Part shown: positions 2,959 to 43,948 of the stretch, in pieces
How the letters are laid out: the number at the start of each line of letters is the position of its first letter
Position numbering within the stretch: the first letter of the stretch is position 1
Virus record (IMG/VR): IMGVR_UViG_3300021344_000001
Span: 1 to 49,744 of that record
DNA: 49,744 nt
Direction: 5' to 3' (one strand)
From: a virus
Taxonomy: Duplodnaviria > Caudoviricetes
Translations under genes and position numbers: made by a program
Notes under the pieces: generated by a model
Told to the model about the DNA's origin: nothing
Seen by the model: only the letters and a program-made list of their open reading frames with translations
Database searches by the model: none

Positions 2959-3576
2959 ATGAAACTCTATGAAGTAACCCAAGAGCACTTAGACAATTTC
3001 AAGAAGAACAACATCAGTTCACTAGAACCAGTCCCGAACGTACTCACTTGGATGGACCTAGCCGTAAAGTTCAAAGAGATGCTCGAAGTTTCTACTCAGC
3101 GAGACGAGGAAGGGGTGCCCTGCTGGTACCTTAAAAAGAATCGTAAGCGCATCGACTCTAGGATCTCAGTACCCTTTCAAGTACAAACTACGAGATTCGC
3201 GTTCTATTTGTACGACCAGGAGTGTGAGAAGTACACCTTAGAAACTATGCATAAACAAATGAGTCGAAGCAGGAAGTTCCTACGTACCTCCTGCCGTGAT
3301 ATCCACTGCGTAAACCCTGACCACCTCTTCGAGAGTTTCACGGCGTACTTGCATTCCGACCCTCCTAAGGTCCCCAAGGGTTCAGCGTGTAAGATGTCGA
3401 AACTCACCGAGGAGCAGGTCATCGAGATAAGGAGCGCACCCGGCACCCTGCAAGACCTAGCCAAAATCTACGGAGTTTCCAAACCCTCGATCTCGAACAT
3501 CAAACGTGGCCTCTCTTGGAGGCACCTTCTTTCCCCCAACAATACCCAAGGAGTAACCCCATGCGACTCACGGTAA
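2959..3576 (+). CDS. HNH-type endonuclease-like protein with C-terminal HTH
   Basis: CW...SCRDIHCVNPDHL His-Me finger remnant; KLTEEQVIEIR...LAKIYGVSKPSISNIKRG..WRH tail typical of phage HNH proteins; AAGGAG RBS. Confidence 0.7.
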   Translation: MKLYEVTQEHLDNFKKNNISSLEPVPNVLTWMDLAVKFKEMLEVSTQRDEEGVPCWYLKKNRKRIDSRISVPFQVQTTRFAFYLYDQECEKYTLETMHKQMSRSRKFLRTSCRDIHCVNPDHLFESFTAYLHSDPPKVPKGSACKMSKLTEEQVIEIRSAPGTLQDLAKIYGVSKPSISNIKRGLSWRHLLSPNNTQGVTPCDSR

Positions 3577-3860
3577 TGCCCGGTAAACTGCTCGTCGAAG
3601 AATTCCCTGAGCAGACCGTTACTGCCTCTGGCCTGTACGTCACCTCAGACCCCCACCAAGCTCAGTACGAGGGTCACGGTAAGGTGATCGAAGTTGGAGG
3701 GCCGCGTCGATTCTCAGACGGTACGGAGGAGCCCTCCGAACTTCAGCCGGGCGATGAGATCTTCTACTCGAACACTACCGCTAGCCAGGCACGCATCGAC
3801 GGTAAGACATATCTCATCATCAAGGAAGAGTCAGTTCTTGCGAGAAGGGCACGGAACTAA
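3561..3860 (+). CDS. groES: Co-chaperonin GroES (Cpn10)
   Basis: AAGGAG then ATG 3561; TASGLYV mobile loop, GKVIEVG.G, LQPGDEIFY, IDGKTYLIIKEESVLA. Confidence 0.85.
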   Translation: MRLTVMPGKLLVEEFPEQTVTASGLYVTSDPHQAQYEGHGKVIEVGGPRRFSDGTEEPSELQPGDEIFYSNTTASQARIDGKTYLIIKEESVLARRARN

Positions 3861-4142: not shown

Positions 4143-4831
4143 ACCGAGAACCTGACTACTACGAGAAAATCGCAGCCTCTCGAAACCCGAAACACGATCT
4201 CCACTGCATGTGTCCAAGCTGCTTCAAGACACCTATCTGTTGCATGGTCTGTCAGTACGAGTTCCGTTACGTAGGAGACCTGGTCAAGCACAGGACGCGC
4301 ACCCACGAAATTAAGAAGGGAGGGCAGCACGCACCTACCCGAATGAAAGTGGCGAAGCGGGAGCTTATTCCAGACGGACTGGGGTATCTCATCAAGGTGT
4401 TTGCAAGCGAACACAGAAAGAACATCAACACCGAGGAGCTGTCGAAGTTCGCTCAACACATCGCAGACCTACAACATACGCAGAGAAAGAACCGAACCCG
4501 TCATCATTTTATAGCATCCAGGCTGCGGGCACTGAAGGACGAACCTAACGGAAAGACCCAGGTCCTCCTCACCTTCCCGAATCAGTACCTCTTGCCCGCA
4601 TACCAGATATGGGAGATTACCGGGGTACAGCCAAACCTGATCCTCCTGGCCCTCAACGCATACGGTCTGGAGTACCTCGCCAAAGAACTACGCCAGTACC
4701 CCGTCTTCCCAGAAGTGACCCAAGCCCCCGAGAAGAAATTGACTACCGAAAAGAATACGAAGAAGGTAAAAAATGATACACCAGAGACCGAAACGCCTGC
4801 CAAATCGTCTACCAGATCGAAGTTCTTTTAG
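4121..4831 (+). CDS. Zn-finger-containing hypothetical protein
   Basis: HCMCPSC and CMVC-x12-H-x4-H (C2H2-like) motifs. Confidence 0.6.
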   Translation: MPQFTTLDREPDYYEKIAASRNPKHDLHCMCPSCFKTPICCMVCQYEFRYVGDLVKHRTRTHEIKKGGQHAPTRMKVAKRELIPDGLGYLIKVFASEHRKNINTEELSKFAQHIADLQHTQRKNRTRHHFIASRLRALKDEPNGKTQVLLTFPNQYLLPAYQIWEITGVQPNLILLALNAYGLEYLAKELRQYPVFPEVTQAPEKKLTTEKNTKKVKNDTPETETPAKSSTRSKFF

Positions 4832-5213
4832 GGAGAGGTACCCAAAATTTGAATCTTCTGTGATTTTTGAACGTCCTTCGGACTATTCACGGTTATGGGG
4901 ACTGGACATAAGGCCAAACACCTACCTCATCCGTCCGTATTCGCCGGAAGGGTTCACGGAAGGAGGGCTTTATGTTAAACTGAACGAATTGTGGACGAGG
5001 GTTTGGGGGTTCGTTCTGGCCTGTAGCCCTTTTAATCACCTCGACCTTGTGCCGGGTGACTTGGTAATGTACGAAAGAGATACAGAGCGCCTCGTGACCT
5101 ACGATGACTCCGTAAACCCCCGGTTCGCCGGAGAAAAACAGCCCATAGCGATTATTCACGAGAGGGAGATCCTCGCAAAAGTCGAAGATAACCTCATTCC
5201 GATGCCGTTTTAG
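4773..5213 (+). CDS. Second, divergent GroES-like protein
   Basis: IRPNTYLIRP..TEGGLYV..GFVLA..LVPGDLVMY..IIHEREILAKVE match the GroES pattern; true start may be internal. Confidence 0.7.
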   Translation: MIHQRPKRLPNRLPDRSSFRERYPKFESSVIFERPSDYSRLWGLDIRPNTYLIRPYSPEGFTEGGLYVKLNELWTRVWGFVLACSPFNHLDLVPGDLVMYERDTERLVTYDDSVNPRFAGEKQPIAIIHEREILAKVEDNLIPMPF

Positions 5214-6601: not shown

Positions 6602-6872
6602 GTACATCGCTAACATAGAACGTGCTGAGTTTCTTGTTAACTGCGAACTCAGACGGCAGACAACTCTCCAAGAAGAGGGTAAGTTCACCTACATCGCATA
6701 TGACAAGGAGTGCCCTCTGATAGTTCGTCTAGCGATGCTCACCGAGGAAGTGGGAGAAGTGGCCAGAGCGATTCAGGAGTTAGACGAATCGAACCTCAAA
6801 GACGAACTGGTACAAATTGCGGCTATTGCAGTCTCTTGGGTCGCGAGGTTAGAAGAGGAAGGCATCAAATGA
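6588..6872 (+). CDS. mazG: MazG-like nucleotide pyrophosphohydrolase
   Basis: LTEEVGEVARAI..NLKDELVQIAAIA (EExxE / ExxD-type) motif. Confidence 0.8.
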   Translation: MQNFKYIANIERAEFLVNCELRRQTTLQEEGKFTYIAYDKECPLIVRLAMLTEEVGEVARAIQELDESNLKDELVQIAAIAVSWVARLEEEGIK

Positions 6873-8515
6873 ATCCCAGGGATCTTCTCGGAGTCACTGA
6901 AGGATGGGACTCGGAAGATAAAGGAGTAGAATTTAGTGAAGAGTCTTCCGAATCGGAATGGCTCTTTTCACTTTGTACCGACTACCTCAACATGTCCGAT
7001 GAGACTGCTAGCTCGGGTATAGGTCTGCAAGAAGAAACGCACATGGCTCCTTGTGTCTTCATCGAAGAAGCTATTGGAGACTTTCAGTTTCGCAGCGACA
7101 TTCAGAAACTTTACATGATGCTTATGCCTCGTGGTACATACAAATCGTCGATACTCGTAGGCGCTTGCGTGGGAGTCATCAAGGAGAATCCGAACGTACG
7201 TATTTTGTGGGTAACGCATAAGCAGAAAGTTTCTTGCGGGCGTCTTCGAGTCATTAAACATCATCTCTCTCATAACGCCGAGTTCCTTGAAGAGTACGGG
7301 TACGGATGGAAGCCGGAGTTTCGAGCAGCCGTCTGGTCTGATTCCCAAATCACGGTGGGGAAAAGGACTAACTTATCCCTTATTGAGCCTACCGTCGATA
7401 CTGGGTCCTTAGGCTCCGATCTAACGTCTACTCACTATGACCTCATCATTGCTGACGATCTTGTAAACGAGAAGAACGTCGTCACGCAAGAGCAACGCGA
7501 TCAAGTCGCCGACTACCTAGACACTCTCCAGTCCATGCTTGACCCTCGTGGGACGCTTATGGTCACAGGGACCCGGTGGCACGTAGATGACGCCTTCGGT
7601 CGCATCATAAAGGACGATGATAAGCGCAAGAGCGAAGGGAAGCCCGAGCGCTACCAGAAGTTCATACGCTCCTGCTGGGACGGCCCTCAAGGCCTGTTCT
7701 TTCCCGCTTGGCAGAGTCACGAATTCCTCGAAAGCATACGTAACCGTCCGGGCAAGGCGCGGTACTTCGCAGCCAATTACGAGAATAAGCCCGTCGCAGA
7801 CGAAGACCGGGTATTTGACATCTCCAACGTGAATATCACGGACTTCTCCTTGATAAAGATGGGTAAGACGAACATCATACGTCTAGCGACGGGGGAGCAG
7901 TACCCGGTCAATACGACAATGGCGTGGGACCCTGCGGGCATGAACCCTACGCGCAAGAGCGACTACCACGGTATCACCATCGTCGGTACGGACTTTGCTG
8001 ACCGTTGGTGGACCCTCGTTGCAGCCGGATGGAAGGGGTCAGTCTCTGAGATCCTTGAGCGAGTCTGCGTTCAGATTCAGTTCTACTCCCCGACGAAGAT
8101 CATTGTAGAGAACGTAGGCGGTTATGGTCTGTGGATACCCATGCTCCAGCGCATGCTCCGAGAGAAGGGCCTGAGCATACTGATTGAAGAGGACAAGGTA
8201 GGCGGTCAGAACAAGTCCACTCGTATACAAATGCTTGAACCGAGAGTACGCGCGGGTAGACTCTACCTACTCCCTGATCAGAAGTCCTTGATTGAGCAGA
8301 TTGATAACTTCTCAGCAGCTAACGAACTCGTGCATGAGGACATCCTCGACTCTCTGGCCAAGCACGAGGGCAGAACACAGACTGCGAGGCAGCGCCTACC
8401 TGATTTCAAGGACATTTTTGAGCTGAGTAAGCCTCAAGAACCCTTCTGGCCCGAGGAGAAGCCCCTCGGCAGCCCCTACTCCGCAGGGTTTCACGGAATG
8501 AATTGGAAACATTGA
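6869..8515 (+). CDS. terL: Terminase large subunit
   Basis: ATGA-coupled start; MPRGTYKSS Walker A, YDLIIADD Walker B, GTRW motif III, AWDPA and HEDILDSL RNase H-like nuclease motifs. Confidence 0.9.
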   Translation: MNPRDLLGVTEGWDSEDKGVEFSEESSESEWLFSLCTDYLNMSDETASSGIGLQEETHMAPCVFIEEAIGDFQFRSDIQKLYMMLMPRGTYKSSILVGACVGVIKENPNVRILWVTHKQKVSCGRLRVIKHHLSHNAEFLEEYGYGWKPEFRAAVWSDSQITVGKRTNLSLIEPTVDTGSLGSDLTSTHYDLIIADDLVNEKNVVTQEQRDQVADYLDTLQSMLDPRGTLMVTGTRWHVDDAFGRIIKDDDKRKSEGKPERYQKFIRSCWDGPQGLFFPAWQSHEFLESIRNRPGKARYFAANYENKPVADEDRVFDISNVNITDFSLIKMGKTNIIRLATGEQYPVNTTMAWDPAGMNPTRKSDYHGITIVGTDFADRWWTLVAAGWKGSVSEILERVCVQIQFYSPTKIIVENVGGYGLWIPMLQRMLREKGLSILIEEDKVGGQNKSTRIQMLEPRVRAGRLYLLPDQKSLIEQIDNFSAANELVHEDILDSLAKHEGRTQTARQRLPDFKDIFELSKPQEPFWPEEKPLGSPYSAGFHGMNWKH

Positions 8516-8531
8516 CGGAATGTGTTAGAAT
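8512..8531 (+). promoter_or_regulatory. Putative extended -10 promoter for fibre/head operon
   Basis: TGtTAGAAT just after terL stop. Confidence 0.4.
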
Positions 8532-8565: not shown

Positions 8566-8700
8566 ATGCCTAAAATGAAAAAGAAGAAGCATAAGCCTCA
8601 AGAAGTGGGCAAAATAGGCAAGGGCGGCGGCAAAATAGCGAAGGCTATGGCTTTCAACATGGAAAGCAACAAGAAAATGAAGAAAGCGAAGAAGAAGTGA
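8566..8700 (+). CDS. Lys-rich microprotein (44 aa)
   Basis: MPKMKKKKHKPQEVGKIGKGGGKIAKAMAFNMESNKKMKKAKKK; stop overlaps GTG of next gene. Confidence 0.6.
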   Translation: MPKMKKKKHKPQEVGKIGKGGGKIAKAMAFNMESNKKMKKAKKK

Positions 8701-10208
8701 AGAGATTCGTTATCAGTCTCGCCCTATTCGCTCTTCTTCCTGCATCGGTATGCGCGGATCAGGTCGTAACTATGCCGTACAATTACTCTTTCAAAGGTTC
8801 TATCACTATTCCCTCTATCGCTGCTGCACAGTGCCTAGTGACTGACTCGAATCATAAAGTAATTGGTCAGGCCTGCGGAGGAGGCGGTGGAGTTTCTTCA
8901 ATAAACCCTGGACCCTCGAATAACTTGACTTTCAGTCCTACTACTGGCGCAGTCATCGGTGACATCATTTCAAACCCTACCTTTGTCGGTAATGTGACTG
9001 CCGCCGGGTTTACTACTGCTTCTTTTGTGCATGCGTCTACGGGCATCATTACAAATGACCTCGAAGCCGGTTCTCTTATAGCAGATAACTTAGTAAATGG
9101 GCAATGCGTCCAAGCGGGTCTTGGTGGACAACTCCTTAGTTCTGGTTCTCCTTGTGGTGCAGGCGGAGGTGTCTCTTCCGTCACCTCGACGAACTCTAAC
9201 CTCTCTGCTGCTCCGACCACCGGGGCAGTCGTTCTCGACTTTTCTAACTCCCCGATCTTCACCGGCCTGACGACCACTGACACCCTTCAGGTCAACAGCA
9301 CTTCTCAGTTCAATGGAGCGATGGGAGTAACTGGAAGCGTAACTACGGGCGGTCTAGCAGACTTGTCCATTAGTCCCGGGGAATGCGTAGAAACTACCGG
9401 AGGAAGTGTATTCGTCGGTACCGGATCACCATGCGGCGGAGGCGGAGTTACCTCTGTCTCGGGCACGGCGAACCAGATCACGGTCGTTAACGGCACTACG
9501 ACCCCAGTTGTTTCCATTTCTAACAACCCAACCCTGCCTGGTCACACTACCGTAGCGGATTTCACAGCCAATGGTGATTCAGCTCTCTCCGGGGATCTCA
9601 CTATAAACGGTGTTTTGCTTACGAACGATGTTGTAACAGTCAATGCACTTAATGCGAATCAATGCGTTGCAACGGACGGCAGCCGTAGACTTACAAGCAC
9701 TGGTTCCGCCTGCGGAGGAGTTTCCTCAGTCACTTCTGCGAACAGTCTTCTTGTCGCTTCTCCGACTACCGGAGCAGTTGTGCTTACGGCTGACACTACC
9801 CCCGCTTTCGATAGTGTGTCCACCGATACCCTCCAAGTTAACAGCACATCGAATTTCGATGCGGATGTGACTGTAAATGCCTCTGTACAAGCTTCTGACT
9901 TCATCGACACTACCCTCACTCCTAATTATTGCGTCAATGTAGGCGGGAGTAGTCAGTTAACTAGTCTCCCGTGCACTCAGCACGGCAATCAGTCGATCAC
10001 CGCGTCTCTTGGAACTTGCGTAGCGGGTACCCCCGTGGTCTTCGCAACGCCGTTCCTCTCCACCCCGGACATCGCAGGCAGCACGTCACCAGTAGTCGGT
10101 GACACCTTCTCACCGTCCTCCATCACCACGACCGGGTTTACCCCGAACCTTTGTAGTACGGCAAGCAATGCCGCCGCCACAGTCTACTGGATCGCTACCG
10201 CAGGATAA
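8697..10208 (+). CDS. Secreted fibre-like protein 1
   Basis: Signal peptide MKRFVISLALFALLPASVCA; five C-x13-16-C motifs with GGVSSV spacers; C-terminal VVFATPF..P...VYWIATAG fibre-tip (H-lectin/gp53-like) pattern. Confidence 0.75.
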   Translation: MKRFVISLALFALLPASVCADQVVTMPYNYSFKGSITIPSIAAAQCLVTDSNHKVIGQACGGGGGVSSINPGPSNNLTFSPTTGAVIGDIISNPTFVGNVTAAGFTTASFVHASTGIITNDLEAGSLIADNLVNGQCVQAGLGGQLLSSGSPCGAGGGVSSVTSTNSNLSAAPTTGAVVLDFSNSPIFTGLTTTDTLQVNSTSQFNGAMGVTGSVTTGGLADLSISPGECVETTGGSVFVGTGSPCGGGGVTSVSGTANQITVVNGTTTPVVSISNNPTLPGHTTVADFTANGDSALSGDLTINGVLLTNDVVTVNALNANQCVATDGSRRLTSTGSACGGVSSVTSANSLLVASPTTGAVVLTADTTPAFDSVSTDTLQVNSTSNFDADVTVNASVQASDFIDTTLTPNYCVNVGGSSQLTSLPCTQHGNQSITASLGTCVAGTPVVFATPFLSTPDIAGSTSPVVGDTFSPSSITTTGFTPNLCSTASNAAATVYWIATAG

Positions 10209-10834
10209 TGAACATGAAAAAGCTCTCCGCTCTCATTGCCCTTCTCCTCGGCCTCCTTCCTACGGCCTCTTTTGCTGATGCCAGCGAAGCGGGACAGAAG
10301 CAGACCCTCACTGGGAATGTGGCCCTTACAGGATCTCTTACTGCGAAGAACTTGAATCCTGTGTTTGTAAATACACTTTCAAGCGTCTACAACACTTCCC
10401 TGAATTTTGGTGGTGGTGGGTCGGCTTTCAATTTCAACATTTACACGAATGAAAGTTTGTTAGCGAGTACATTAGACCCTAATTCAACATCCCTTTCGTT
10501 TATTCAAATAACAGGATTTTCTATCCAATGTATGCCGTTTAACCCAGCACTAGCAGGACACGCGAACTACCCGTATCCTTTCGCGGAAACTAATGGAATC
10601 GGTGGAGGAACAGTAACTGTCACGGAGTATAAGTCAGACAGTGTTACTGTTGTAGGCAATTTAGTTCTTCCGACGAGTCCTCATAATGGACCCTACATAA
10701 ACAAAGCAAGTGTTAAACTAAATAATCCTTACACTCCCACAAGTGGGTCAGTTTTCAATGCTGACATAACAGTCGCCGATCCAGTGCCAACGATGGATTG
10801 GGGCCAGTGTGTAGTTACTGCTCTTCTCCAGTAA
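10208..10834 (+). CDS. Secreted beta-rich protein 2
   Basis: Signal peptide MKKLSALIALLLGLLPTASFA; one Cys pair; TAATG coupling. Confidence 0.7.
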   Translation: MNMKKLSALIALLLGLLPTASFADASEAGQKQTLTGNVALTGSLTAKNLNPVFVNTLSSVYNTSLNFGGGGSAFNFNIYTNESLLASTLDPNSTSLSFIQITGFSIQCMPFNPALAGHANYPYPFAETNGIGGGTVTVTEYKSDSVTVVGNLVLPTSPHNGPYINKASVKLNNPYTPTSGSVFNADITVADPVPTMDWGQCVVTALLQ

Positions 10835-10842
10835 GGATTTAT

Positions 10843-10947
10843 ATGCCTAAGAAACCGAAGCACAGCGGAACTTCTGTCAAGAAAATGTCTATCATGAAGA
10901 TGGTGGAACAAATGGCGATGAAGAAGAAAGAAGGCAAGAAGAAATGA
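10843..10947 (+). CDS. Lys/Met-rich microprotein (34 aa)
   Basis: AAGGA RBS; MPKKPKHSGTSVKKMSIMKMVEQMAMKKKEGKKK; ATGA overlap with next gene. Confidence 0.6.
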   Translation: MPKKPKHSGTSVKKMSIMKMVEQMAMKKKEGKKK

Positions 10948-11702
10948 TTAAGAAGGGTGTACTGCTCTTTTTATTCTTTCTAGGCTTTATTTGTTCTGTC
11001 GTTCCTCCGAGAGATGCTTTCGCTGACGTAGCGTTTTTGCAGGTCACAGGCAACCCGTACCATCCGACAGGCCCTTATCTCACTCTTCCAGGCATGGGCG
11101 GTCAGAGCGCCTGCGTAGTAGGACTAAACGGGTCGGTAGGAGGCTCCTGGAAGGTCGAGGGTCTGTATCACAATACTCAGGCATGGACGCAGGCTCTCAC
11201 CGTTGTCTCGCCTGACGGTCTGAACCCAAGCACTTCGATCACATCCGCAGGAAGCTACGCATTCAACTGCGCCGATATGATCGCGGTTCGGCTCGACGGT
11301 ACGACGGGTACTGGGACTCCGATTACCCTGATAGCGGCAGGTGGAGGCATTAGCCGGGTCCTGTTCAATGCGACGGGCAGTGGGGCTGTAATGGCCGTTA
11401 ACGGCACCTCCCCTATCGTAACGAACACGGTCGGAGGAACGGTCACGGTATCGTGCCCTACGTGCGATTCAACGACGCGCACACAGGTCACACAGCTCAC
11501 TACGTCTGCGGTAACGCCTTGGCAGGCGACATTCACCTTCGGCACACCGTACGCTTCACCTCCGATATGCGTAGCGACGTGCTTCAGTTCAGCTCCGTTG
11601 ACGACTATCGCGACGGTAGTCTCCGAGAGCGCATCAGCCGTTACCATTTACGACAGCAGTCAAACAGGAGCGCAGTACAATGTTCAATGCACGCACTCGT
11701 AA
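10944..11702 (+). CDS. Secreted fibre-like protein 3
   Basis: Signal peptide ending DAFA; N-terminal beta domain; C-terminal TFTFGTPYASPPIC...YNVQC domain. Confidence 0.75.
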   Translation: MIKKGVLLFLFFLGFICSVVPPRDAFADVAFLQVTGNPYHPTGPYLTLPGMGGQSACVVGLNGSVGGSWKVEGLYHNTQAWTQALTVVSPDGLNPSTSITSAGSYAFNCADMIAVRLDGTTGTGTPITLIAAGGGISRVLFNATGSGAVMAVNGTSPIVTNTVGGTVTVSCPTCDSTTRTQVTQLTTSAVTPWQATFTFGTPYASPPICVATCFSSAPLTTIATVVSESASAVTIYDSSQTGAQYNVQCTHS

Positions 11703-12309
11703 GACCTTAGCAGCCACAGTTCTTGCGTTCGCAACGGCGTCCGCCCCTGCGTTGGCTGTCCCGCCTGCGAACTCGACGGTCATCAACACCCTTAACCTCT
11801 CGGGGGTTACTGCTTCACGATGCTTGGAAACCGATGGTAGCAGTACTGTTGTTCCGGCTAGCGGTGTTTGTGCGTCAGGAACTGTTACTTCTGTCTCGGG
11901 TACAGCGAACCAAATCACTGTCACGAACCCGACTACGACCCCCGTCGTTTCGATCCCATCAAATCCAACCATTCCAGGGTTGTCTGCCTCGAACTGCGTG
12001 TCAACCAACGGGTCATCAGCCCTCACCTCAAGTGGGGAGCAGTGCCCGACCACGTACATCGCAGGAGCGCGGGCGAGCGGTCTCCACATCGAAACGAAGC
12101 AGGTTACGACCTCCGCAACGACCCCTTGGGAGGCGACTGTGACCTTCGGGGCAGCATACACGGCAGCGCCGCTCTGCACCGCGACGAGCTTCAATTCGGG
12201 TCCGAACCCTATCCCTGTGGATGTTGTCTCCGAGAGCACGACTACCGCAGTCATCTTCGACGGATCTGAGAGTGCCGCCGTGTTCAATGTGATCTGCATA
12301 GGGTTCTAG
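11680..12309 (+). CDS. Secreted fibre-like protein 4
   Basis: Signal peptide ending APALA; two C-x15/16-C motifs; TVTFGAAYTAAPLC...FNVICIGF. Confidence 0.75.
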   Translation: MFNARTRKTLAATVLAFATASAPALAVPPANSTVINTLNLSGVTASRCLETDGSSTVVPASGVCASGTVTSVSGTANQITVTNPTTTPVVSIPSNPTIPGLSASNCVSTNGSSALTSSGEQCPTTYIAGARASGLHIETKQVTTSATTPWEATVTFGAAYTAAPLCTATSFNSGPNPIPVDVVSESTTTAVIFDGSESAAVFNVICIGF

Positions 12310-12310
12310 T

Positions 12311-13252
12311 ATGAAACGGTTAAAAGCCCTCACGCTGGTGGCGGTACTGGGTCTTCCAGTATCCGCCCTTGCTGCTGCCAATAACACCGTCGTGCAAAAT
12401 TTACAAGTCACTGGATTGACCCCTGGGAACTGTATGCAAGCATCTACTGCGGGTCTTGTCACAGCTGTTGGTTCGGCATGCGGTACCGTAACCGCAGTAA
12501 CAGGGTCAGGAAACATATCCTCCTCGGGAGGAACAACTCCAAATGTAACTATTACGAATGCTCCTACCTTCTCAGGAGCGGTTACAACAAGTAGTAACGG
12601 ATTAGGAGCTTTTACTGCAACTAATGGAGGAATTAGAACTCTTTCAAGTTCTAACGCGGGAAATACAACAGTATTCGGTAACTATGTCGGAGGCACTGGA
12701 GGGAATTTTCCTATAGCTTTTGCATATACCAATACTAACACGAAAAATACAGCTATTGGTTCCGCAAGCGCCAACAGTATCGCTGGTATTTCAGGGACTT
12801 GCTTAGATATCGGGCAATACGCGGGCACGAGTTTGGATACAAATTTGGTAACTATAGATTGCTCTGGAAACGTAGGACTAGCTGCGGGATTATTTAGTAC
12901 AGGAGTAACCGACTCCGGCCTTACCTCGGGAAAATGTGTTCAAGCAGGAGCATCGGGATTACTAGCGAACGCGGCGGGGGGAAGTTGCCCTACTACCCGT
13001 AGCAACACGACCCTTTTAGGAGGGACTCACGTCGAAACTGTTCCTTCCACTTCTGTAGCAGGCGTGTCTACGGGCACGTTTACCTTTGGAGCGGCGTATG
13101 CGGCGGCTCCAGTATGCACAGTGTCTACGGTAGCTAGCGGTACTAGCATAACCCCCGCGTTCAATGTCACTAGCACGAGCACGACTCAGCTCGTCGTCAC
13201 AAACACCAACGCTTTATCGCAGAATTACAGCGCAATATGCGTAGGATTCTAG
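12311..13252 (+). CDS. Secreted fibre-like protein 5
   Basis: Signal peptide ending SALA; Cys-pair motifs; TFTFGAAYAAAPVC...YSAICVGF. Confidence 0.75.
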   Translation: MKRLKALTLVAVLGLPVSALAAANNTVVQNLQVTGLTPGNCMQASTAGLVTAVGSACGTVTAVTGSGNISSSGGTTPNVTITNAPTFSGAVTTSSNGLGAFTATNGGIRTLSSSNAGNTTVFGNYVGGTGGNFPIAFAYTNTNTKNTAIGSASANSIAGISGTCLDIGQYAGTSLDTNLVTIDCSGNVGLAAGLFSTGVTDSGLTSGKCVQAGASGLLANAAGGSCPTTRSNTTLLGGTHVETVPSTSVAGVSTGTFTFGAAYAAAPVCTVSTVASGTSITPAFNVTSTSTTQLVVTNTNALSQNYSAICVGF

Positions 13253-13671
13253 TTCTGATCCTTTACCTAATCACGATCGCGCCTTCGTATTCGGCGAATG
13301 CGTATGATAACTCTGGTAATTTAGTCTCGACAGGTGGAACGTCTTCTAGCTGCATGCAAACTGACCCATCTCTAGTAGTCACGTTTCCGGGAACAACGTG
13401 CGGAACTGGGATAGGCGCTAGTACCTATAAAAACGGTTCATTGCTCGTGGGATCTCATCTCGAATTATTTGATAATGTCCTCTTGGCAAACAACACTACT
13501 CATGTATATACTTTTGGAAGTACTTATGCAGCTATTCCGGTATGCACTGTTTCCCTGAACAATAGTGGTAACGGTAACTATTGGGTAAGTGCAGTAACAA
13601 TAAGTGCAGTAACAATAGACAACGCTAGTGGGAATACCCGAACCCCCTATGTAAAGTGTGCAGGTTTCTGA
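13237..13671 (+). CDS. Secreted fibre-like protein 6
   Basis: Signal peptide MRRILVLILYLITIAPSYSANA; one Cys-pair motif; YTFGSTYAAIPVC...YVKCAGF. Confidence 0.7.
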   Translation: MRRILVLILYLITIAPSYSANAYDNSGNLVSTGGTSSSCMQTDPSLVVTFPGTTCGTGIGASTYKNGSLLVGSHLELFDNVLLANNTTHVYTFGSTYAAIPVCTVSLNNSGNGNYWVSAVTISAVTIDNASGNTRTPYVKCAGF

Positions 13672-13672: not shown

Positions 13673-15619
13673 ATGAAAAACAAACTGACTACAGAGCATC
13701 AACCTGAATCCATCGGTATGAAGCCTGTTCGTCGTTTAGATGACGAACAGTGGAGAGCAATGGGTCAGTCGGTTTACCAAATGATCGACATGAACCTCGG
13801 AAATAGGGGCGGATTAGAGGCGTCCTTGAACTACGGAAACGCCTTGTACGAAATGATGGGAGAGCGAGCGAACCCTCCTTGGGATGGATGCGCGAATATC
13901 GTCGTTCCAGTTGTCTTCACTATGGTAAAAGAAATGTCTGCTCGAATCTCGGGTTCAGCACTCATACCCCGTCCGTACTCCGTACACGGTAGTGACGCGA
14001 TTTCGACTCAGTATTCACACATCGTTGAGCAGTTTTACAATTCAGAGTATCTAAAAAATAAATGGAAAAATCCTCAGGATACGTGCATCGAACTAAGTGC
14101 TCGGGACGGTACGGCAATTCTCGAAGTTTTATGGGAAAAGAAGATCTCCGAAACGACGCATCTCATCGACGGACCTGTCATGGACGAATCAGGAAATCCG
14201 CAGGTGGATGAGAACGGTCAGGCTATTATAAAAAAGCAGAAGCAGACTGTCAGGAAGGTGGAATACGATGCAGTTAAATACACTGCTGTTGAGCTTCGCG
14301 ATTTTATTCTTTTTCCTAATTACGCTCCTTCTATTGAAGAAGCTGATGGAGTAGCTCGTAAGATCTACATGACCGAGCAAGACCTGTGGGCAATGGTCGA
14401 ATCTGGCACCTTCAAGAAGGATGCAGTAGAGGCCGTTCTGTCTTACGTGTCTTCAGCTCAGGATGAACGTCCTATGGATCGGCAGGGTAACTTCACATAT
14501 ACTATCGGCGGTAAGATCGCCATAGGGGACTACTCGGTAACGAACCCTACGGACATTAAAATAGCTCGTGGTCCTGTTGAAGTTTGGAAGGTACTAACCC
14601 GGCAGTATGATTTAGATGGAGACGATGTCTTTGAAGAGAATTTTATCTGGGTTCATGACACTAGCCAAACTATGCTTGGTTATGCGCCTTATGAGTATGA
14701 GGGAGGCCGTCCCTACTTTCCTATCTGTCTTATGCCTCGCCCGAATAGGTTTTACGGATTTTCCGTTCCTGATGTGTCTGGGGCAGTTCAGGAGGAAGCT
14801 TCTGCTCAAAGAAACGCGAGACTCGACTGGTTAGACATTTCATCGAACCCCACGATGTACGCAACTCCGGGGTTCAAGAACAAGGGAGAGAACGAGTCAC
14901 GCCGGTTCGGTCCTGGGGTCATGTTTGAGGTCGATACGCCTACCGATTTCGGGTTCTTGCAGCTTGGAGATCCTCCGCAGGCACTATTTCAAGAGGAGTC
15001 CTCGCTCTTGGCGATGGCAGATCGTAGCATCGGCGCACCTCAGACCGGCGGATCTCCTCCAGGAGGACAACTACAAGGGAAACCGACCGGAAGAGCGATG
15101 CAGCAGAGTACGGCTCTCCAAGGCATGCAGACTAACCGAATGATCGTCATGGTCAGGGACTGGATGCAAGATATTCTCCGTTTTACACATCTTTTATACG
15201 TGAAGTATGGAAAAGATCAAATGCAAATGCTCCAGGCGTCGAGCGAAGGGAACATCCAGGTTACGGTTCCCCGAGAAATCCTCGCACAAAACTACATTTT
15301 AGGCATAAATGGGCAGGGAGGACCTCTCGATAAGGAGAATAGAAGACAAGACGCGATGGCTGTTTACCAAATGGGTCTCCAGAACCCTCTGGTTGCAGGA
15401 AACATGAAACACGTTTACAATATCACTCGTAACCTGTACGAAACCTTCGACTATCCCGACGTTACCGGGTTCATCGGTACGATGGACGAAGCAGAACAGT
15501 TACAGCAAGCCCAACAGATTGCTCAACAGAAGCAGCAGCAGGAGCAAATGGCAATGCACGTTATCAAGCAGACCGACATAGGTTCTGCAAACCCGATTCC
15601 AGAAGTTAAAGGAGAATAG
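13673..15619 (+). CDS. Portal protein (P22-like)
   Basis: ~650 aa; PWDGCANI..P, DGTAILEV.W, PRPNRFYGFS, Q..NARLD..NP, Gln-rich C-terminal barrel; position before scaffold/capsid. Confidence 0.85.
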   Translation: MKNKLTTEHQPESIGMKPVRRLDDEQWRAMGQSVYQMIDMNLGNRGGLEASLNYGNALYEMMGERANPPWDGCANIVVPVVFTMVKEMSARISGSALIPRPYSVHGSDAISTQYSHIVEQFYNSEYLKNKWKNPQDTCIELSARDGTAILEVLWEKKISETTHLIDGPVMDESGNPQVDENGQAIIKKQKQTVRKVEYDAVKYTAVELRDFILFPNYAPSIEEADGVARKIYMTEQDLWAMVESGTFKKDAVEAVLSYVSSAQDERPMDRQGNFTYTIGGKIAIGDYSVTNPTDIKIARGPVEVWKVLTRQYDLDGDDVFEENFIWVHDTSQTMLGYAPYEYEGGRPYFPICLMPRPNRFYGFSVPDVSGAVQEEASAQRNARLDWLDISSNPTMYATPGFKNKGENESRRFGPGVMFEVDTPTDFGFLQLGDPPQALFQEESSLLAMADRSIGAPQTGGSPPGGQLQGKPTGRAMQQSTALQGMQTNRMIVMVRDWMQDILRFTHLLYVKYGKDQMQMLQASSEGNIQVTVPREILAQNYILGINGQGGPLDKENRRQDAMAVYQMGLQNPLVAGNMKHVYNITRNLYETFDYPDVTGFIGTMDEAEQLQQAQQIAQQKQQQEQMAMHVIKQTDIGSANPIPEVKGE

Positions 15620-16949: not shown

Positions 16950-17888
16950 ATGCCGATTACGGTAGCCGTCCAAAAACCAGTGGTGCAGTTGCCGCCTACT
17001 GCAATGTCAATGTCCCCCATCTATCTCCCCGCCGATCCCGGCCTTATAAAAGATGCAGATTTCGTATATTTCGCAACGGGGACGAAGGCTGAAGGGTTCT
17101 TCCTAATCGGGGGAACTTTTGTTATCGGGGACACGATCACATACTCAATCAACGGTGTAGTTCGTCCGGCTATTGCGGTGGTTAACAATGACGACGCTCT
17201 GGCAAAGATCGTAGCCGACATCAATGCGAACTCGGTTGCAGAGTTAGTTACTGCTTCGATTGACGGAAACTTGGTCATTATCATTGCGAATACTCCGGGC
17301 GTTGCCGGTAACGCGATCACACTCGCTATTTCTACTACTTCGATCACTGGGGAAGTCGCTCCCTCTGGCGCGACCCTCGTTGGTGGTTCCGCTCTCGGCC
17401 TACCGGGCAGAATCTCCCCGGCTCCTGCGAATGTCGCTGGGGGTCTTGTCGGTGTCGCTCAATGCTCCTCAGAAATGACCTGGCAGGGGAATCCCACGGT
17501 CGGTAAAGCGTACCCGGACTCGGTCTTTGGTCAGTCTAACGTCGGTACCGGAGTGTTCTCAGCGATGCCGGGGCAAATTCCAGTCCTTACCCTTGGGCCT
17601 CCGGTTGTCGTGGTTATGAACCTCACCCCGTCAACCGGATGGCAGGCGGGAGGAACTCAACAAGCGACATACGGTACGCTCGTTGGTCTCGCTATTGATG
17701 CGGCTACTGGGTATTACATCGTTGACCCAACTGCGTCTAATCTTGTAGCAGTCATTCAGGACGTTGATAATAGCGTAAATAACGCTCTTGTTAACAACCA
17801 GTACCAGTTAGACCCGACCGGTATCCTCGGTATCCGGGTCTACGTCTCGTTCCTCGCCAGTGCGCTCGCTATCGTTCAAGGAGTCTAA
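16950..17888 (+). CDS. Putative capsid decoration protein with inserted surface domain
   Basis: Directly upstream of MCP; G/A/V/T-rich; shares an internal domain with 19505..20467. Confidence 0.55.
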   Translation: MPITVAVQKPVVQLPPTAMSMSPIYLPADPGLIKDADFVYFATGTKAEGFFLIGGTFVIGDTITYSINGVVRPAIAVVNNDDALAKIVADINANSVAELVTASIDGNLVIIIANTPGVAGNAITLAISTTSITGEVAPSGATLVGGSALGLPGRISPAPANVAGGLVGVAQCSSEMTWQGNPTVGKAYPDSVFGQSNVGTGVFSAMPGQIPVLTLGPPVVVVMNLTPSTGWQAGGTQQATYGTLVGLAIDAATGYYIVDPTASNLVAVIQDVDNSVNNALVNNQYQLDPTGILGIRVYVSFLASALAIVQGV

Positions 17889-19504: not shown

Positions 19505-20467
19505 ATGAGCATTCAGATAAGAGCAAAGGAGTGCAACCCGCAGGCACTTCTTTATGGCGCATGGGACTCTCTCCAGTTTCAGCCGATGATCGTTCCTGCT
19601 GCTGTACAAACTTCAGATGTTGTTCAAGGGATCATACCCCTTGGGCTCAACTTCAAGATCACGCACATCTCCTACGTTATGAGCAACTGGGAGGTTGTTC
19701 CTCCTGCCGCCCCTACTGGCGGAAACTTTGTGGCGGGTAAGTTAGCTCTGAACGTCGTTTCTGGTGTTGCAGCGTACGAGGGAGCTGGAGCAGCTTCATC
19801 CTATGCGTATTTGACCCTCGGCGGAACTTTCCTAGTAGGCGACAAGATCACCATCACGATCGCTGGCGTCCCGTACGTCTACACGGTCTCAGGGCGTGCT
19901 GCTGTCGATCTTACGCACGTTGGAGCGCATCTCGCGGAGTCCCTTAACCTCCAGGCTATGATGGGCGTCAACCCTGCCTTTAACACCCTGTACCGGGCGA
20001 ACTCCCTGGGCGTAGAAGTGGTCATTCAAACCCTGGCCTATGACGTCGCTACTCCGGCGTTCGTTGTCTCAACAAACAGCGTAGCGGGTACGGTACTCGC
20101 GAGTGGTGCTGCGATGGTCGCAGGCGTTGCTGGAGCGAAACCGCTCTCTCCTCCCTTGGACACGACGAATCAAGGCATCACTCCTTCACTTACAGCAGTT
20201 CCAGGAGATGCGCTGTTCCCGGAGGACATCGTTCTCCCTCTATTTGACGCCGGTCAGGCCGATGTCGTTGGTGAAGTGTATGCGCTCGAAAGCTTCGACG
20301 CCTTTTGGCCGACTGGTACGGAGCTAACCCTCCGCATCACTGCTGACGGTGTGGTTGCAGGCGGTTTAAGCGTGATTCTCTGGGGTGTCCCAATGGATCT
20401 TCACTACTACCTCCCAGGGAGTTCTTCGACCGGAATAGGCTTCCACATCTCCAATGAGCTGCTCTAA
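19505..20467 (+). CDS. Virion structural protein
   Basis: In morphogenesis operon; shares GGTF..GD.IT..I.GV domain with 16950..17888. Confidence 0.6.
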   Translation: MSIQIRAKECNPQALLYGAWDSLQFQPMIVPAAVQTSDVVQGIIPLGLNFKITHISYVMSNWEVVPPAAPTGGNFVAGKLALNVVSGVAAYEGAGAASSYAYLTLGGTFLVGDKITITIAGVPYVYTVSGRAAVDLTHVGAHLAESLNLQAMMGVNPAFNTLYRANSLGVEVVIQTLAYDVATPAFVVSTNSVAGTVLASGAAMVAGVAGAKPLSPPLDTTNQGITPSLTAVPGDALFPEDIVLPLFDAGQADVVGEVYALESFDAFWPTGTELTLRITADGVVAGGLSVILWGVPMDLHYYLPGSSSTGIGFHISNELL

Positions 20468-20904
20468 TGGGAAGCAGCATAACCAGTGTAGGAAGCGCGG
20501 GCGGAAAGCCCGTCTTCACATTTACGGCGTCCGGTCAAGATACCGGCGTATTGCCGCTGATGAAGGAATGCTCTCGGTGGACGAAGTGGATGTTTCAAGT
20601 AGTGGGGGCAGGACTGGGATATACGGTGACATTGTACGGTACAATTGATACCGTTACGGCATATCAGGACTTCCCGCTAGATCAGCAGCCGGTGAATAAT
20701 TACGGATCTACGGGCAATGAGTGGTTCCCTCTCCCTGCTCCTTCCGTTGAGGCCGGGTTCCAGTGGACTAATCCCTTGACGAAGGGAAACGCTCTCTACA
20801 CTACCGCTCCTCTCGTCGCAGTACGTGCGGTAAGCTCGACAACTATCGGGTTTCCTGGAGTCACTGGTGAAGTTACTCTCCTAGCGTTCGTTTTGCCAGG
20901 GTGA
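20467..20904 (+). CDS. Small beta-rich virion protein
   Basis: TAATG coupling; TVTLYGTID..WFPL..AVRAV pattern. Confidence 0.6.
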   Translation: MGSSITSVGSAGGKPVFTFTASGQDTGVLPLMKECSRWTKWMFQVVGAGLGYTVTLYGTIDTVTAYQDFPLDQQPVNNYGSTGNEWFPLPAPSVEAGFQWTNPLTKGNALYTTAPLVAVRAVSSTTIGFPGVTGEVTLLAFVLPG

Positions 20905-21581: not shown

Positions 21582-22367
21582 TTGAACGCGGGAACGGTAA
21601 TCAATGATTGGCGTCGTAACGTAAATGAACCCGGCACCAACAGGTTCACGGTCTCTGACTCTATCGATTTACTGAACAAGGCTCAAATTCAAACTGCGCT
21701 AGATCTTCCCTACACTGAAGGCACGAACACGTTCCCCACTATTGCGAATCAGCAAGAATACGCGATGATCGAAAACATACGTGTTCTTCGTGTTTACATG
21801 CTTGGTCCGAACGGTGCGAAGCAGCTCCTTGAACCTACAGATATTCCTACGATGGAAGGCGAAAATCAGAATGTCTTCGACGCTTCCTCAGATTTTATTT
21901 TAGGACAGCCTCCTCTCACACCCCAATGGATAGCACAAAAACCTGTAACTTACCCTTATCGCTCGCCCCAACACCAGGGTCAGGGGCACCCTGCGTCAAT
22001 GTGGAACTGGAGTAATCCTCCGAGATGGTATCGCAGATATGGTAACATTGGCTTCGTACCTCCTCCTAACGCTGTTTTCACTGTCTGTATGGACTTTATC
22101 CCTAACCCTCCTATCGTCGTTACTACATCGGATCTTTTAGAGTTTCCTGAGATGTACCGAGATGCTCTGGTCTATAAAATGTCAGAGTATTCACGCCAGG
22201 CAGACGGTTCACAGGATAGCATGAAGAACGCTCAACTCTATCAGGCTCAAATAAAGAAATTGCAGACGAACGTGAATAAGTTTCAAGCGACGAAGTCTCT
22301 CAATTTCGTACCTTGGGTTCGTAGATGCCGGAGCAATAACCGTGGTCGTGGATGGTGGGGGTTCTAA
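21582..22367 (+). CDS. Head-to-tail adaptor protein
   Basis: Helical N-terminus DLLNKAQ, TIANQQEY, P.WY..IGFVPPP, FPEMYRDALVY pattern of podovirus adaptors. Confidence 0.7.
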   Translation: MNAGTVINDWRRNVNEPGTNRFTVSDSIDLLNKAQIQTALDLPYTEGTNTFPTIANQQEYAMIENIRVLRVYMLGPNGAKQLLEPTDIPTMEGENQNVFDASSDFILGQPPLTPQWIAQKPVTYPYRSPQHQGQGHPASMWNWSNPPRWYRRYGNIGFVPPPNAVFTVCMDFIPNPPIVVTTSDLLEFPEMYRDALVYKMSEYSRQADGSQDSMKNAQLYQAQIKKLQTNVNKFQATKSLNFVPWVRRCRSNNRGRGWWGF

Positions 22368-23782
22368 TGGCTGAGTCGATATTTCCTTTCCTCCCGAACG
22401 GAGCCTCTGCGCCTCCTCAAACATTCCCTTATGATGTCGTTATAAGCGACGCGTTTCCAGGCATACAGTTCATTCCGCTCGAACCGAATGGCGAGTACCA
22501 GGAGATTCGAGAAGTCTCGGGCAACCTCTGGCTCGTTACGAACGCGATGTGGAACGCAAACCTCTTGCAGTGGGACCAAGAGTCTCTTCAGAATACTGGC
22601 CTGCCTGCCTATGCTCTTGAACTAGGAGCGGATGGTTCAATGACTCGATGGGAGTCCCCTCCGACCAATATACCGCTTACGCCCATCACATGGACTCGCT
22701 TATTTCAAGTGGATAACAAGGGACAGGTCATTAGCGTGCCTTTGACTGTTCTGACCGCGAACCAAGCATCACAACAGATTTTCGTTGTGTGGGACCCAGG
22801 TATCGGTACTCAAGTCGAGGGTAGGCTGCTCCAAGTTACTGACGTAGCGTCGGCGTCAAATTCCTTACTTGATAACTTGGTAGTGAATGGTAACTCCAAG
22901 TGGGCTGTCGATAAGAGCGGTACTCTTGTAACAGGCATTATACCTGTAGCACGTATAACAGGTCTGGTGCCCTTCCCTGGATTCAATAACGCTACATTTA
23001 CCGGCACAACGACGTTCAACGGCCCTGTTGTCGATAATAGTACGTTGGACGTTTTTGGTGCTGCAACCTTCCATAGTTCGCTAACGGCGGATTCTACATT
23101 CTTTGCTGTAGGCCTTGCAACACTAAATAGTCATGCAAATGTCAACAGTGGACTAACAGTCACCGGCGGAGAGTCTGTAACGGGCGGTCTAACTACTGAC
23201 ACGCTTCATGTTACCGGAATATCTACGTTAGACGGGGCAGTGACAGCAAATAATACCTTAGCCGTGGTTGGGCATACTCAGTTAGCTAACGTCACGTTAA
23301 ATGCGGGAGACGTTATATCAGTAAATGGCACTACTCCAGTGGTTCTTCTAGAATCAACTAACGGCAGTATAGGCGTATCTCAGGTAAGTAATCATGAATA
23401 TGACTTAAGTGTCCTAACCGCTCCTATTGCCCCCGGCTCTTCCTACGTCAATACTGCTTTTTTCCCTCTAGGGTCTACTAACGGTACTATCTCTCTTGGA
23501 CCGCTACCGGGCACTGCCGCCAACACGTTCCGAATAATTTATTGGGGGGCGTTGCAGTTCCAAAATGCTTCCAGAGAGCTAACAGTCACTGGCGTTGTAT
23601 CCGCCGGTATAACATGGGACGTCGCTTCTCAGCAGTATGAAAACTCTAATTCAGGTACGTTCCCATTCATGTATTTCGGTACTGCGGAAGGTGGCACTAC
23701 TCCCACAATAAACTGGACTTGCAATGACGTTATTGCATTTACTCCTATGTTCACTACGATCATGGCAAGTATCCAACTCTAA
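22367..23782 (+). CDS. Tail fibre/spike-like protein (no signal peptide)
   Basis: TAATG-coupled start; TL.V.GA.T repeats typical of beta-stranded fibres; single Cys. Confidence 0.65.
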   Translation: MAESIFPFLPNGASAPPQTFPYDVVISDAFPGIQFIPLEPNGEYQEIREVSGNLWLVTNAMWNANLLQWDQESLQNTGLPAYALELGADGSMTRWESPPTNIPLTPITWTRLFQVDNKGQVISVPLTVLTANQASQQIFVVWDPGIGTQVEGRLLQVTDVASASNSLLDNLVVNGNSKWAVDKSGTLVTGIIPVARITGLVPFPGFNNATFTGTTTFNGPVVDNSTLDVFGAATFHSSLTADSTFFAVGLATLNSHANVNSGLTVTGGESVTGGLTTDTLHVTGISTLDGAVTANNTLAVVGHTQLANVTLNAGDVISVNGTTPVVLLESTNGSIGVSQVSNHEYDLSVLTAPIAPGSSYVNTAFFPLGSTNGTISLGPLPGTAANTFRIIYWGALQFQNASRELTVTGVVSAGITWDVASQQYENSNSGTFPFMYFGTAEGGTTPTINWTCNDVIAFTPMFTTIMASIQL

Positions 23783-26477: not shown

Positions 26478-26810
26478 ATGTCGGGAATGATGCCGGGACC
26501 TCAAATGGGACAGCAGGGTCAGCCCCAAGGTGGACAACCTGCAAATGTTGCCCCAGAGCAGTTAATGGCTCTCTTATCCTTCCTGCAGCGGCTTGGTCCG
26601 AACTTGCAGCAGGGGCAAGTCGCTCCGGCGGGTGGTTCGGAAGTAGGGCAAGGGAGTCTTATGCAGCTCATGCCGATGCTTCTGAAATTGTTGTCTGCGA
26701 ACCCTCAGCAAGCACAACAGCAACAGGGACAACAGCAGCAAGCGCAACAGGCTCAGGAGCCACCTCAGATTCTCCAAATGTTGGCTAAAATGGGGTTGAC
26801 AGTGAAATGA
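26478..26810 (+). CDS. Gln/Met-rich protein, possible internal virion protein
   Basis: Low-complexity Q/G/M composition; stop overlaps next ATG. Confidence 0.55.
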   Translation: MSGMMPGPQMGQQGQPQGGQPANVAPEQLMALLSFLQRLGPNLQQGQVAPAGGSEVGQGSLMQLMPMLLKLLSANPQQAQQQQGQQQQAQQAQEPPQILQMLAKMGLTVK

Positions 26811-27235
26811 AGGGGTACTCCATAGCCTCAATATCAATAGAAGAAGTCATTCCCTTCGGCTTGGCTTATGCAATAAAGTACAAGATCCCTTTTTCTTATA
26901 AGTGGGTGGATGAGTGGGCGAAATACTGCCAGTGGTTCGGGGCTCAGTGCGGTGGACGTACCTGGGGAGCTTTGGGAGTTATGACGTGCGAATCCATGCC
27001 GGACGATCTCTGCGTAACCTGCCTGTATGGGAAACCTCAAGCTACGAAGATAATGCTCGATCATGTTCTATCTTTCCCCCACAAGCACAAGTTCGGGTAT
27101 GTAGCAAATTTCAACAAGCCCTTCCAGAGGGTCCTGAAAAAAAGAGGCTGGAGGATATCTCCGGAAACGGAAGTAAGTCCAATAGGGCTGAATTTACACT
27201 TAGTCGAATATACAGGTGGCGGATATGGGAACTAG
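26807..27235 (+). CDS. Putative GNAT-fold protein
   Basis: C-terminal VANFNKPFQRVLKKRGWR resembles GNAT motif B (N..a..l..klGF); typical position before podovirus ejection genes. Confidence 0.45.
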   Translation: MKGYSIASISIEEVIPFGLAYAIKYKIPFSYKWVDEWAKYCQWFGAQCGGRTWGALGVMTCESMPDDLCVTCLYGKPQATKIMLDHVLSFPHKHKFGYVANFNKPFQRVLKKRGWRISPETEVSPIGLNLHLVEYTGGGYGN

Positions 27236-28184
27236 TGGAGGCGGCGGCGGAGCAGCTCAAGGGGCAATGCAAGATGCTCTAAAAAATCAAGGTCTTGCGG
27301 CAAACAATATAAACGCAGGCATCAACAGCCTAAGTTCGCAAGCGGCTATGCTCAATTCCCCTCTGCAAACAACGACGAACGCCTTATCGGGTGGCATAAA
27401 CGCGCTCTCGCCTGGCTATCAGTCAGGCTTAGGTACCGCTCTCGGGAGCGGCGGTGACATGTCCGCTCAGACCGGCGTGAATCAGAATCAGCAGGGCAAG
27501 AACCTAGTGGACTACGCATCGGCTCCAGGTAAAACGAATCTCTCGGGAGTCAACCCTGGCCTGAATAGTTTTTACCAGGGGGAGATGTCTCAAGGCATGG
27601 GTCAGCCTGCCATGCTTAACGCACAGAATCAGCTTCAGCAGCAATTCGCGCAGGCAAACAGTACAGCCAAGAATAACGCTGCGCCAGGCACGAATCAAGC
27701 AGCGACGAATCAGGCGAATCAGAACGCCTTGCTTACCGCTTCAGGCAACCTTGCAGGATCCCTGGCCGGAGAGAATCAAACGATCAAAGGTCAAGGCGCG
27801 GCAGGGGTAGCTTCGACGGCCTCTAACCAAGACGCACAAATTATGAGTATGCTTAAGGAAGCATTCTCGACAGGTCAAGGGCTTAACTTACAGGCTCTCC
27901 AAAACCTCATGTCTGTTCTAGGGCTCGGCACTACGACCTTAAATCAAGGACTTGACTCTGCTAAACAGGGTGCTGAAAACATCGGGGCGGGGATATCGGC
28001 CAATGAAGGGCTGTTCTCAGGGTACGGTGGTCAGGCTCAACAGTTCGGTGCACAAGCTGCGGAAAACCGGAAGAGCGGCGGATTGGGCGGATTATTAGGA
28101 GGTCTAGCCGGGGGCGCTGCTGCTGCTATGACAGGGGGGGCAGCAGGTGCAGGAGGCCTGGGAGGGATCTTAAAGGCGCTATGA
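27216..28184 (+). CDS. Ejection/DNA pilot-like protein
   Basis: G/A/Q/N-rich, C-terminal GGLGGLLGGLAGG glycine zipper. Confidence 0.65.
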   Translation: MADMGTSGGGGGAAQGAMQDALKNQGLAANNINAGINSLSSQAAMLNSPLQTTTNALSGGINALSPGYQSGLGTALGSGGDMSAQTGVNQNQQGKNLVDYASAPGKTNLSGVNPGLNSFYQGEMSQGMGQPAMLNAQNQLQQQFAQANSTAKNNAAPGTNQAATNQANQNALLTASGNLAGSLAGENQTIKGQGAAGVASTASNQDAQIMSMLKEAFSTGQGLNLQALQNLMSVLGLGTTTLNQGLDSAKQGAENIGAGISANEGLFSGYGGQAQQFGAQAAENRKSGGLGGLLGGLAGGAAAAMTGGAAGAGGLGGILKAL

Positions 28185-43865: not shown

Positions 43866-43948
43866 TTTAGACAGGATATCAAAAGCATTCCTGTGATGAA
43901 GAGCCATGCAGAGCCAATTAACATGCCTATCAGTACTCCCCAGTTCAT
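43862..43948 (-). CDS. 28-aa single-TM peptide
   Basis: MNWGVLIGMLIGSAWLFITGMLLISCLK; TAATG with helicase stop and ATGA with polA start. Confidence 0.55.
   Translation of the reverse strand: MNWGVLIGMLIGSAWLFITGMLLISCLK

Follow-up and report, generated by a model that had tools for sequence, protein, structure and literature searches.

The particles of tailed phages are regarded as finished by the time of lysis and as assembled from leaderless cytoplasmic proteins. AP22 gp53, the R2 pyocin fiber, and the Pam1 tailspike are all made in the cytoplasm and attached via an N-terminal anchor. We analyzed the 49,744-nucleotide genome of a tailed phage (IMG/VR record IMGVR_UViG_3300021344_000001; this whole stretch is called the window), a complete phage genome with a terminal repeat of 127 bases, and found between terL, the gene for the terminase large subunit, and the portal gene a cassette of six consecutive genes (S1-S6) encoding fiber-like proteins with predicted signal peptides. 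The cassette is a real, conserved, and specific feature whose design is kept among relatives while its content is reshuffled, and its proteins are, by their sequence patterns, very likely exported and folded outside the cytoplasm. The reading that we favor, with a probability of about 0.55, is that the exported fibers attach to finished virions at lysis as interchangeable accessory adhesins.

With AP22 gp53, the R2 pyocin fiber, and the Pam1 tailspike, the cassette proteins share the same predicted C-terminal tip fold on a fiber-like chain; they differ in their signal start, their cysteine pairs, and their gene position outside the tail module. Canonical tail fibers likewise share the shaft hairpin and are set apart by the predicted signals (6/6 in the cassette) and the terL-portal location. 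Signal-bearing mosaic fibers that act on the cell surface have been described as the MAT fibers of Bdellovibrio bacteriovorus (PMC10769870). These resemble the cassette in signal peptide, phage-like mosaic structure, interchangeable tips (TNF-like ones among those of MAT), disulfides, and glycan binding, the last two of which are presumed for the cassette, but they are encoded by bacterial genes and displayed on the predator surface. All 21 MAT fibers are reported there to share a conserved, beta-rich post-signal domain of ~130 residues, whereas S3 is the single cassette protein with a globular domain at its N terminus; 13 MAT fibers carry S74 chaperones, compared with none of the six cassette proteins (PMC10769870). 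The Porphyromonas gingivalis prophages also encode proteins of unknown function that are predicted, by Q-rule signals, to use the host general secretion pathway; those phages are temperate, however, and in the excerpted text their proteins are read as outer-membrane modifiers and not described as fibers (PMC10367356). Our searches of open-licence literature, judged from their listings, turned up no description of signal-bearing or secreted fibers of tailed phages, and such a route appears undescribed there.

S1-S6 are consecutive plus-strand open reading frames (ORFs) that fill positions 8697-13671, between the end of terL at 8515 and an SU10-type portal gene, with stop and start codons that overlap or abut (gaps of -23 to +8). 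The cassette, its flanks, and the leaderless fiber gene used below as an internal contrast are laid out as follows.

6869..8515, plus strand: terminase large subunit gene, the left flank (phrog_38, E 3e-61).
8503..8531, plus strand: sigma-70-like promoter candidate with an extended -10 element, overlapping the terL stop (9/12 consensus matches).
8566..8700, plus strand: 44-residue Lys-rich ORF with no signal peptide; similar ORFs in related loci L003, L010, and L023.
8697..10208, plus strand: S1, 503 residues; predicted signal (1-20), five Cys-bridged hairpin repeats, H-type-lectin-like tip.
10208..10834, plus strand: S2, 208 residues; predicted signal (1-23), a short stalk, and a jelly-roll tip that belongs to a second family and has two invariant cysteines.
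10843..10947, plus strand: 34-residue Lys-rich ORF with no signal peptide, interleaved with the signal-bearing genes; similar ORFs in L003, L010, and L023.
10944..11702, plus strand: S3, 252 residues, candidate anchor subunit; predicted signal (1-27), XepA/YomS-like jelly roll, short CxxC stalk, lectin-like domain of the fiber-tip type.
11680..12309, plus strand: S4, 209 residues; predicted signal, Cys-bridged hairpins, shared tip.
12311..13252, plus strand: S5, 313 residues; predicted signal, Cys-bridged hairpins, shared tip.
13237..13671, plus strand: S6, 144 residues; predicted signal, a single Cys-bridged hairpin, the shared tip; one base separates its end from the portal ATG.
13673..15619, plus strand: SU10-type portal gene, the right flank (PF23899, E 1e-25).
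22367..23782, plus strand: leaderless putative tail fiber gene between the adaptor and nozzle-like genes, assigned by position and anatomy, with no family match.

A first-pass annotation of this DNA had described an operon of six exported proteins. The six consecutive signal-bearing genes are there, and the two small signal-less ORFs also lie inside the cluster, which is therefore not made of such genes alone. None of the six full-length proteins matched a family in Pfam, PHROG, or NCBIfam, to an N-terminal tail-docking domain or otherwise.

Signal peptides were called with a heuristic script of our own that asks for a basic n-region, an uncharged 9-residue core with a mean hydropathy of at least 2, and an Ala-type site. 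As the annotation had proposed, all six cassette genes passed at their first start codon, compared with 0 of the 52 other genes of the window. Among related loci, 33 of 35 whole cassette genes passed, in a count that includes near-duplicates and in which the script was free to choose among nearby starts; the two misses resemble signals by eye. Chance or mis-annotation was considered as the origin of this pattern and rejected, on the 6/6 versus 0/52 contrast and on the anatomy of the cassette. The six mature chains contain no lipobox, twin-arginine motif, LPxTG or other sorting motif, or later membrane anchor, and their highest 19-residue hydropathy is 1.72 (S3), with 1.41 or lower in the others. 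In 18 of 20 sequences with otherwise dissimilar leaders, the N-terminal domain of the S3 type opens at Ala|Asp, a fixed register that is expected from signal-peptidase cleavage.

The mature proteins S1-S6 contain 12, 2, 7, 6, 8, and 4 cysteines, respectively. The paired cysteines claimed for all six are thus seen as even counts in five of them, and S3 departs from the rule; over the cassette proteins of all loci, after four near-duplicates were dropped, the count is even in 34 of 37, the three odd ones being members of the S3 family. A cysteine-bridged hairpin repeat is present in S1, S4, S5, and S6 and not in S2 or S3. A profile search with an S4 alignment collected 100 proteins, 81 of which match a hairpin profile with its cysteines masked. 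The hairpin is Cys-bridged in 57 of 58 signal-bearing and 7 of 23 signal-less proteins (Fisher p 1e-10, a value that overstates the case, as the counts share ancestry and are not phylogenetically independent). Among the seven bridged signal-less proteins, one is a mis-started copy of a signal protein of L023 and the rest appear truncated by eye; the Cys-free leaderless group includes a fiber with a Peptidase_S74 chaperone (P0064) and a Gly_rich_2 protein (P0088). Because cysteine bridges accompany the signal and are rare in leaderless homologs, export and disulfides appear to be coupled, and the pattern says that the cassette proteins would be fiber parts that gained cysteine staples together with an export signal. 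Four signal-bearing homologs lie on other contigs (P0083, P0034, P0039, and P0060); one of them ends in an S74 chaperone, and three have post-signal segments that we take to resemble the starts of tail-fiber anchors.

The ordinary fiber of the same genome (22367..23782) has one cysteine and no signal, just as the annotation had it; its N-terminal ~200 residues are conserved, and its C terminus is variable. The TTDTL repeats said to be common to this fiber and S1 are real as a motif, but S1 has just two copies, one of them reading STDTL, and the fiber has a single one, which makes the motif weak evidence; a BLASTP comparison of the two proteins gave an E value of 2e-7 at 25% identity with composition filters off. 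A thioredoxin-like ORF (47337-47627, minus strand, recognized by eye) lacks a signal peptide and has an SGPC motif with one Cys; it is not an obvious oxidase for the cassette.

These N-termini could instead be uncleaved membrane anchors or assembly leaders of proteins that assemble on the cytoplasmic side and form disulfides only after lysis. The signal calls do rest on a heuristic, and disulfides occur in AlgoCIS, which is assembled in the cytoplasm (PMC13314943). We nevertheless consider this explanation very improbable: the leaders, though divergent, all finish with a small-X-Ala site whose register to the start of the domain is fixed, the cysteine bridges come with the leader and are missing from most leaderless homologs, and cysteine counts are even in nearly all cassette proteins. 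The claim that the proteins fold and become oxidized outside the cytoplasm is strongly supported in this way, and we regard export as very likely because the signal peptides recur in related loci, the cysteines are coupled to the signal, and the cleavage register is fixed. We say "outside the cytoplasm" rather than "periplasm" because the host searches pointed to no host or envelope type and the search for an o-spanin lipobox gave no credible candidate (1 antisense match in 1095 starts).

The promoter candidate at the head of the cassette comes from a scan of the window that returned 18 sites, compared with 11.0 +/- 3.7 in shuffled sequences. All five aligned sequences have, by eye, a TGnTAnnnT-type element after the stop of terL; the -35 part of the candidate overlaps the terL coding sequence. 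No terminator-like site was found between S6 and the portal gene. Given the promoter-like site after terL and the lack of a terminator before the portal, the cassette is probably expressed late and co-transcribed with the head genes. Phage morons have their own promoter, their own terminator, and an optional presence. The cassette has the promoter-like site, but it has no terminator-like site before the portal, and signal genes are present in every readable locus.

Export, the best-supported step, would also serve proteins that act at the envelope of the infected cell or on its surface, where they could mask glycan receptors against superinfecting phages or glue the cell to its neighbors before lysis. 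The conserved promoter-like site is in keeping with such a role. It also has precedents in the MAT fibers and in XepA, which is reported to be exported during phage development and absent from mature particles (PMC6834076). All six chains, however, lack a membrane anchor, lipobox, or sorting signal, and the cassette leads on into the portal and head genes, so that expression would be late and exclusion then of little use. The window encodes terL, the SU10-type portal and adaptor, a capsid protein, a nozzle-like protein, DNA polymerase A, ribonucleotide reductase, and ThyX, a content that fits a lytic podophage, and no integrase was found among the genes scanned, which were not all the genes of the window; the surface of a lysogen is the less likely site for that reason. 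On balance, we consider action on the cell surface unlikely.

The C-terminal domain of ~80 residues common to five of the six proteins (S1 and S3-S6) had been likened to the H-type lectin and gp53-like tips of tail fibers; both its distribution and its likeness held up, S2 being the exception with a tip family of its own. In a fold search with a predicted model, the S3 domain matched fiber tips and lectins at Z 8.0-9.7 across eight-odd structures. The matches include the receptor-binding domain of the Pam1 tailspike (Z 9.7, root-mean-square deviation (rmsd) 1.6, 67 residues aligned), the R2 pyocin fiber (Z 9.5, rmsd 2.4, 81 aligned), LKA1 gp49 (Z 9.2), discoidin I (Z 8.6), AP22 gp53 (Z 8.5, rmsd 2.4, 79 aligned), and Helix pomatia agglutinin (Z 8.0, rmsd 2.0, 71 aligned). 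The fold was assigned to S1 and S4-S6 by profile homology to the S3-type tip. The S1 tip alone matched PF09458 at E<=1, and its L023 homolog did so at 9.7e-7, the only one above the cut-off; full-length S1 had no Pfam match. These results support the assignment of the shared domain, at the level of predicted models, to the fold of phage fiber tips and H-type lectins. By analogy with the matched structures we infer that the cassette proteins form trimers, and their tips would bind glycans.

The model of S3 has two domains (mean predicted local distance difference test score (pLDDT) 65.9, with a poor linker). Its N-terminal domain matched XepA (Z 12.2, rmsd 2.4, 104 residues aligned) and YomS (Z 11.5, 104 aligned), the next unrelated match being at Z 8.2, and Foldseek agreed on YomS. 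These two Bacillus subtilis prophage proteins share the jelly-roll fold with S3, but they are described as pentamers without a fiber or lectin tip (PMC6834076), and S3 has a signal peptide and a cysteine pair in this domain. Each complete cassette has one such domain (4/4, with a weak match in L010, E 3e-5), and in other contigs it heads fibers of very different length. The outline of S3 recalls spike P5 and penton P31 of PR772/PRD1, which combine a jelly-roll N-terminal domain, a trimeric stalk, and a host-recognition tip, and in which a mixed pentamer at the vertex resolves the 3:5 mismatch (PMC6750898); this virus is tailless and membrane-containing and its proteins have no export signal. 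The analogy is one of outline only, the PR772 chain scoring Z 5.9 against the S3 model, which is background level.

S2 was modeled as a jelly roll with no clear match, the best solved structure (Z 7.0) being 4-1BBL, of the tumor necrosis factor (TNF) family, tied with dopamine beta-hydroxylase. The idea that S2 is a paralog of a capsid cement protein found no profile support, nor did the idea, taken from the strand pattern, that the S3 N-terminal domain and a leaderless 145-residue protein (20467-20904) are homologous jelly rolls. A complex prediction for the S3 N-terminal domain with four copies of the latter protein scored 0.00, which is evidence neither way. All leads from the ESM Atlas were at or below 0.9.

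Related loci were collected with portal, terL, capsid, S3, and S4 queries, and those beyond four complete cassettes are partial. The complete cassettes have 6 genes in the window, 5 in L003 (the same as L002), 5 in L008 (the same as L010), and 8 in L023. They show the terL-[signal-bearing fiber cluster]-portal order that the annotation had suggested looking for, and signal-bearing genes precede the portal gene in every locus with a readable whole upstream gene. Between the window and L003, terL, S3-S4, and the portal gene align at 73-82% nucleotide identity, whereas S1, S2, S5, and S6 are mostly unalignable. Five further loci (L007, L011, L012, L013, and L015) have portals that are 98-100% identical, yet their last cassette genes differ, and such turnover beside near-identical portals is the behavior of receptor-binding genes. 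Each cassette protein is a mosaic of signal, Cys-bridged hairpins, stalk repeats rich in Gly, Thr, Ser, and Val, and one of several tips (the shared domain, an S2-type domain, or a glycine-rich domain).

The many tip types per genome would also suit lectin trimers that are set free at lysis and have no set position on the virion, where they could divert competing phages, cover receptors on cell debris, or loosely link virions to the matrix. The anatomy is soluble, five of the six proteins have no anchor domain, and short disulfide-stabilized stalks such as that of S6 (144 residues) are suited to a free extracellular life. On the other hand, the long fibers found in this slot (up to 942 residues among relatives) and the once-per-cassette N-terminal domain with its fixed processed N terminus suggest ordered assembly, and a lytic phage would gain less from diffusible goods. 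We find a purely diffusible role improbable, and a little harder to credit than one on the cell surface.

Attachment to virions, one of the two fates that the annotation had offered beside action on the cell surface, is favored because of the gene position, the fiber ancestry, the turnover like that of receptor genes, the lack of cell anchors, the S3 domain that each complete cassette has once, the binding behavior of decoration proteins, and the precedent of Cellulophaga phage phi18:3. In vitro, decoration proteins are able to attach to mature capsids (PMC7602432). The phi18:3 proteins gp085, gp086, and gp087 (GenBank KC821620) resemble the cassette proteins in being large, in coming from successive genes of a tailed phage, and in their signal-like N-termini (by eye), and they are annotated as "structural protein" from tandem mass spectrometry (MS/MS) proteomics. 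Under the proposed mechanism, the cassette chains would be exported by the host Sec pathway, cleaved, oxidized, and trimerized outside the cytoplasm; lysis would then mix the compartments, and the exported fibers would meet and bind finished virions. S3, with its single jelly-roll N-terminal domain, is the candidate anchor; as a leaderless fiber already belongs to the tail, S3 would probably sit on the head. The full picture of a two-compartment particle, with cytoplasmic heads and tails onto which swappable disulfide-stapled lectin fibers are snapped via the S3 anchor only at lysis, is one that we put forward tentatively, as somewhat short of an even chance.

Several points weigh against attachment to virions. 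No observation places the cassette proteins on the particle, and no docking site or partner was found. The cassette domains showed no profile similarity to the seven leaderless virion genes tested; one isolated weak match linked the tip profile to the 20467-20904 protein (E 9e-4 in a 7-sequence search). S1, S2, and S4-S6 have no recognizable anchor domain; what comes first in their mature chains is a few short beta-strands. A shared N-terminal docking motif was picked up in only 5 of 41 cassette proteins. The structural models are of middling confidence, and the hairpin counts carry the shared ancestry given with them above. XepA, the closest fold to the S3 N-terminal domain, is reported to stay off the particle. 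The phi18:3 proteins, for their part, have no similarity to the cassette profiles, contain 0, 1, and 3 cysteines, have Gln after the predicted site, and have their genes ahead of the lysis genes, not in the terL-portal interval. Given the leaderless fiber of the tail module, the exported set may moreover be dispensable for infection.

A reshuffled cassette of secreted fibers would mean either an assembly step after lysis or a phage-made arsenal of extracellular lectins. Either outcome would alter the way in which the genomes of uncultured phages are interpreted for host range and would offer disulfide-stabilized adhesin modules. Each cassette protein predicts a processed N terminus that is detectable by proteomics.

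No cultured phage carrying S1 or S5 was found, one scan each of GTDB genomes with S4 and terL found no relative, and the portal relatives in the annotated phage set reach only 21% identity. No Rfam family was found in the window. An HNH-type ORF (41735-42280, minus strand) lies in another frame within the DNA polymerase A gene (41187-44006, minus strand), whose own frame stays open over a stretch of ~148 residues (about 41751-42195) that is missing from two relatives and has no Rfam intron match; the arrangement is possibly an intron or an overprinted mobile endonuclease. Two GroES-like genes lie at 3516-3860 and 4773-5213, the second being a weak match. Among the probable ejection-protein genes are an ATP-grasp gene (PurD-like, by weak matches) and a small gene of no family (26807-27235 and 28181-29503). 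The head-module protein encoded at 16950-17888 has an internal segment like the tail-sheath family phrog_165 (E 2e-5), in a phage that shows no sheath gene. Another head-module gene (19505-20467) has an ortholog in L003 (15433-17058) that bears an inserted ice-binding domain (PF11999, E 2e-56); the window copy is without it, and the L008 ortholog has an insertion at the same place.

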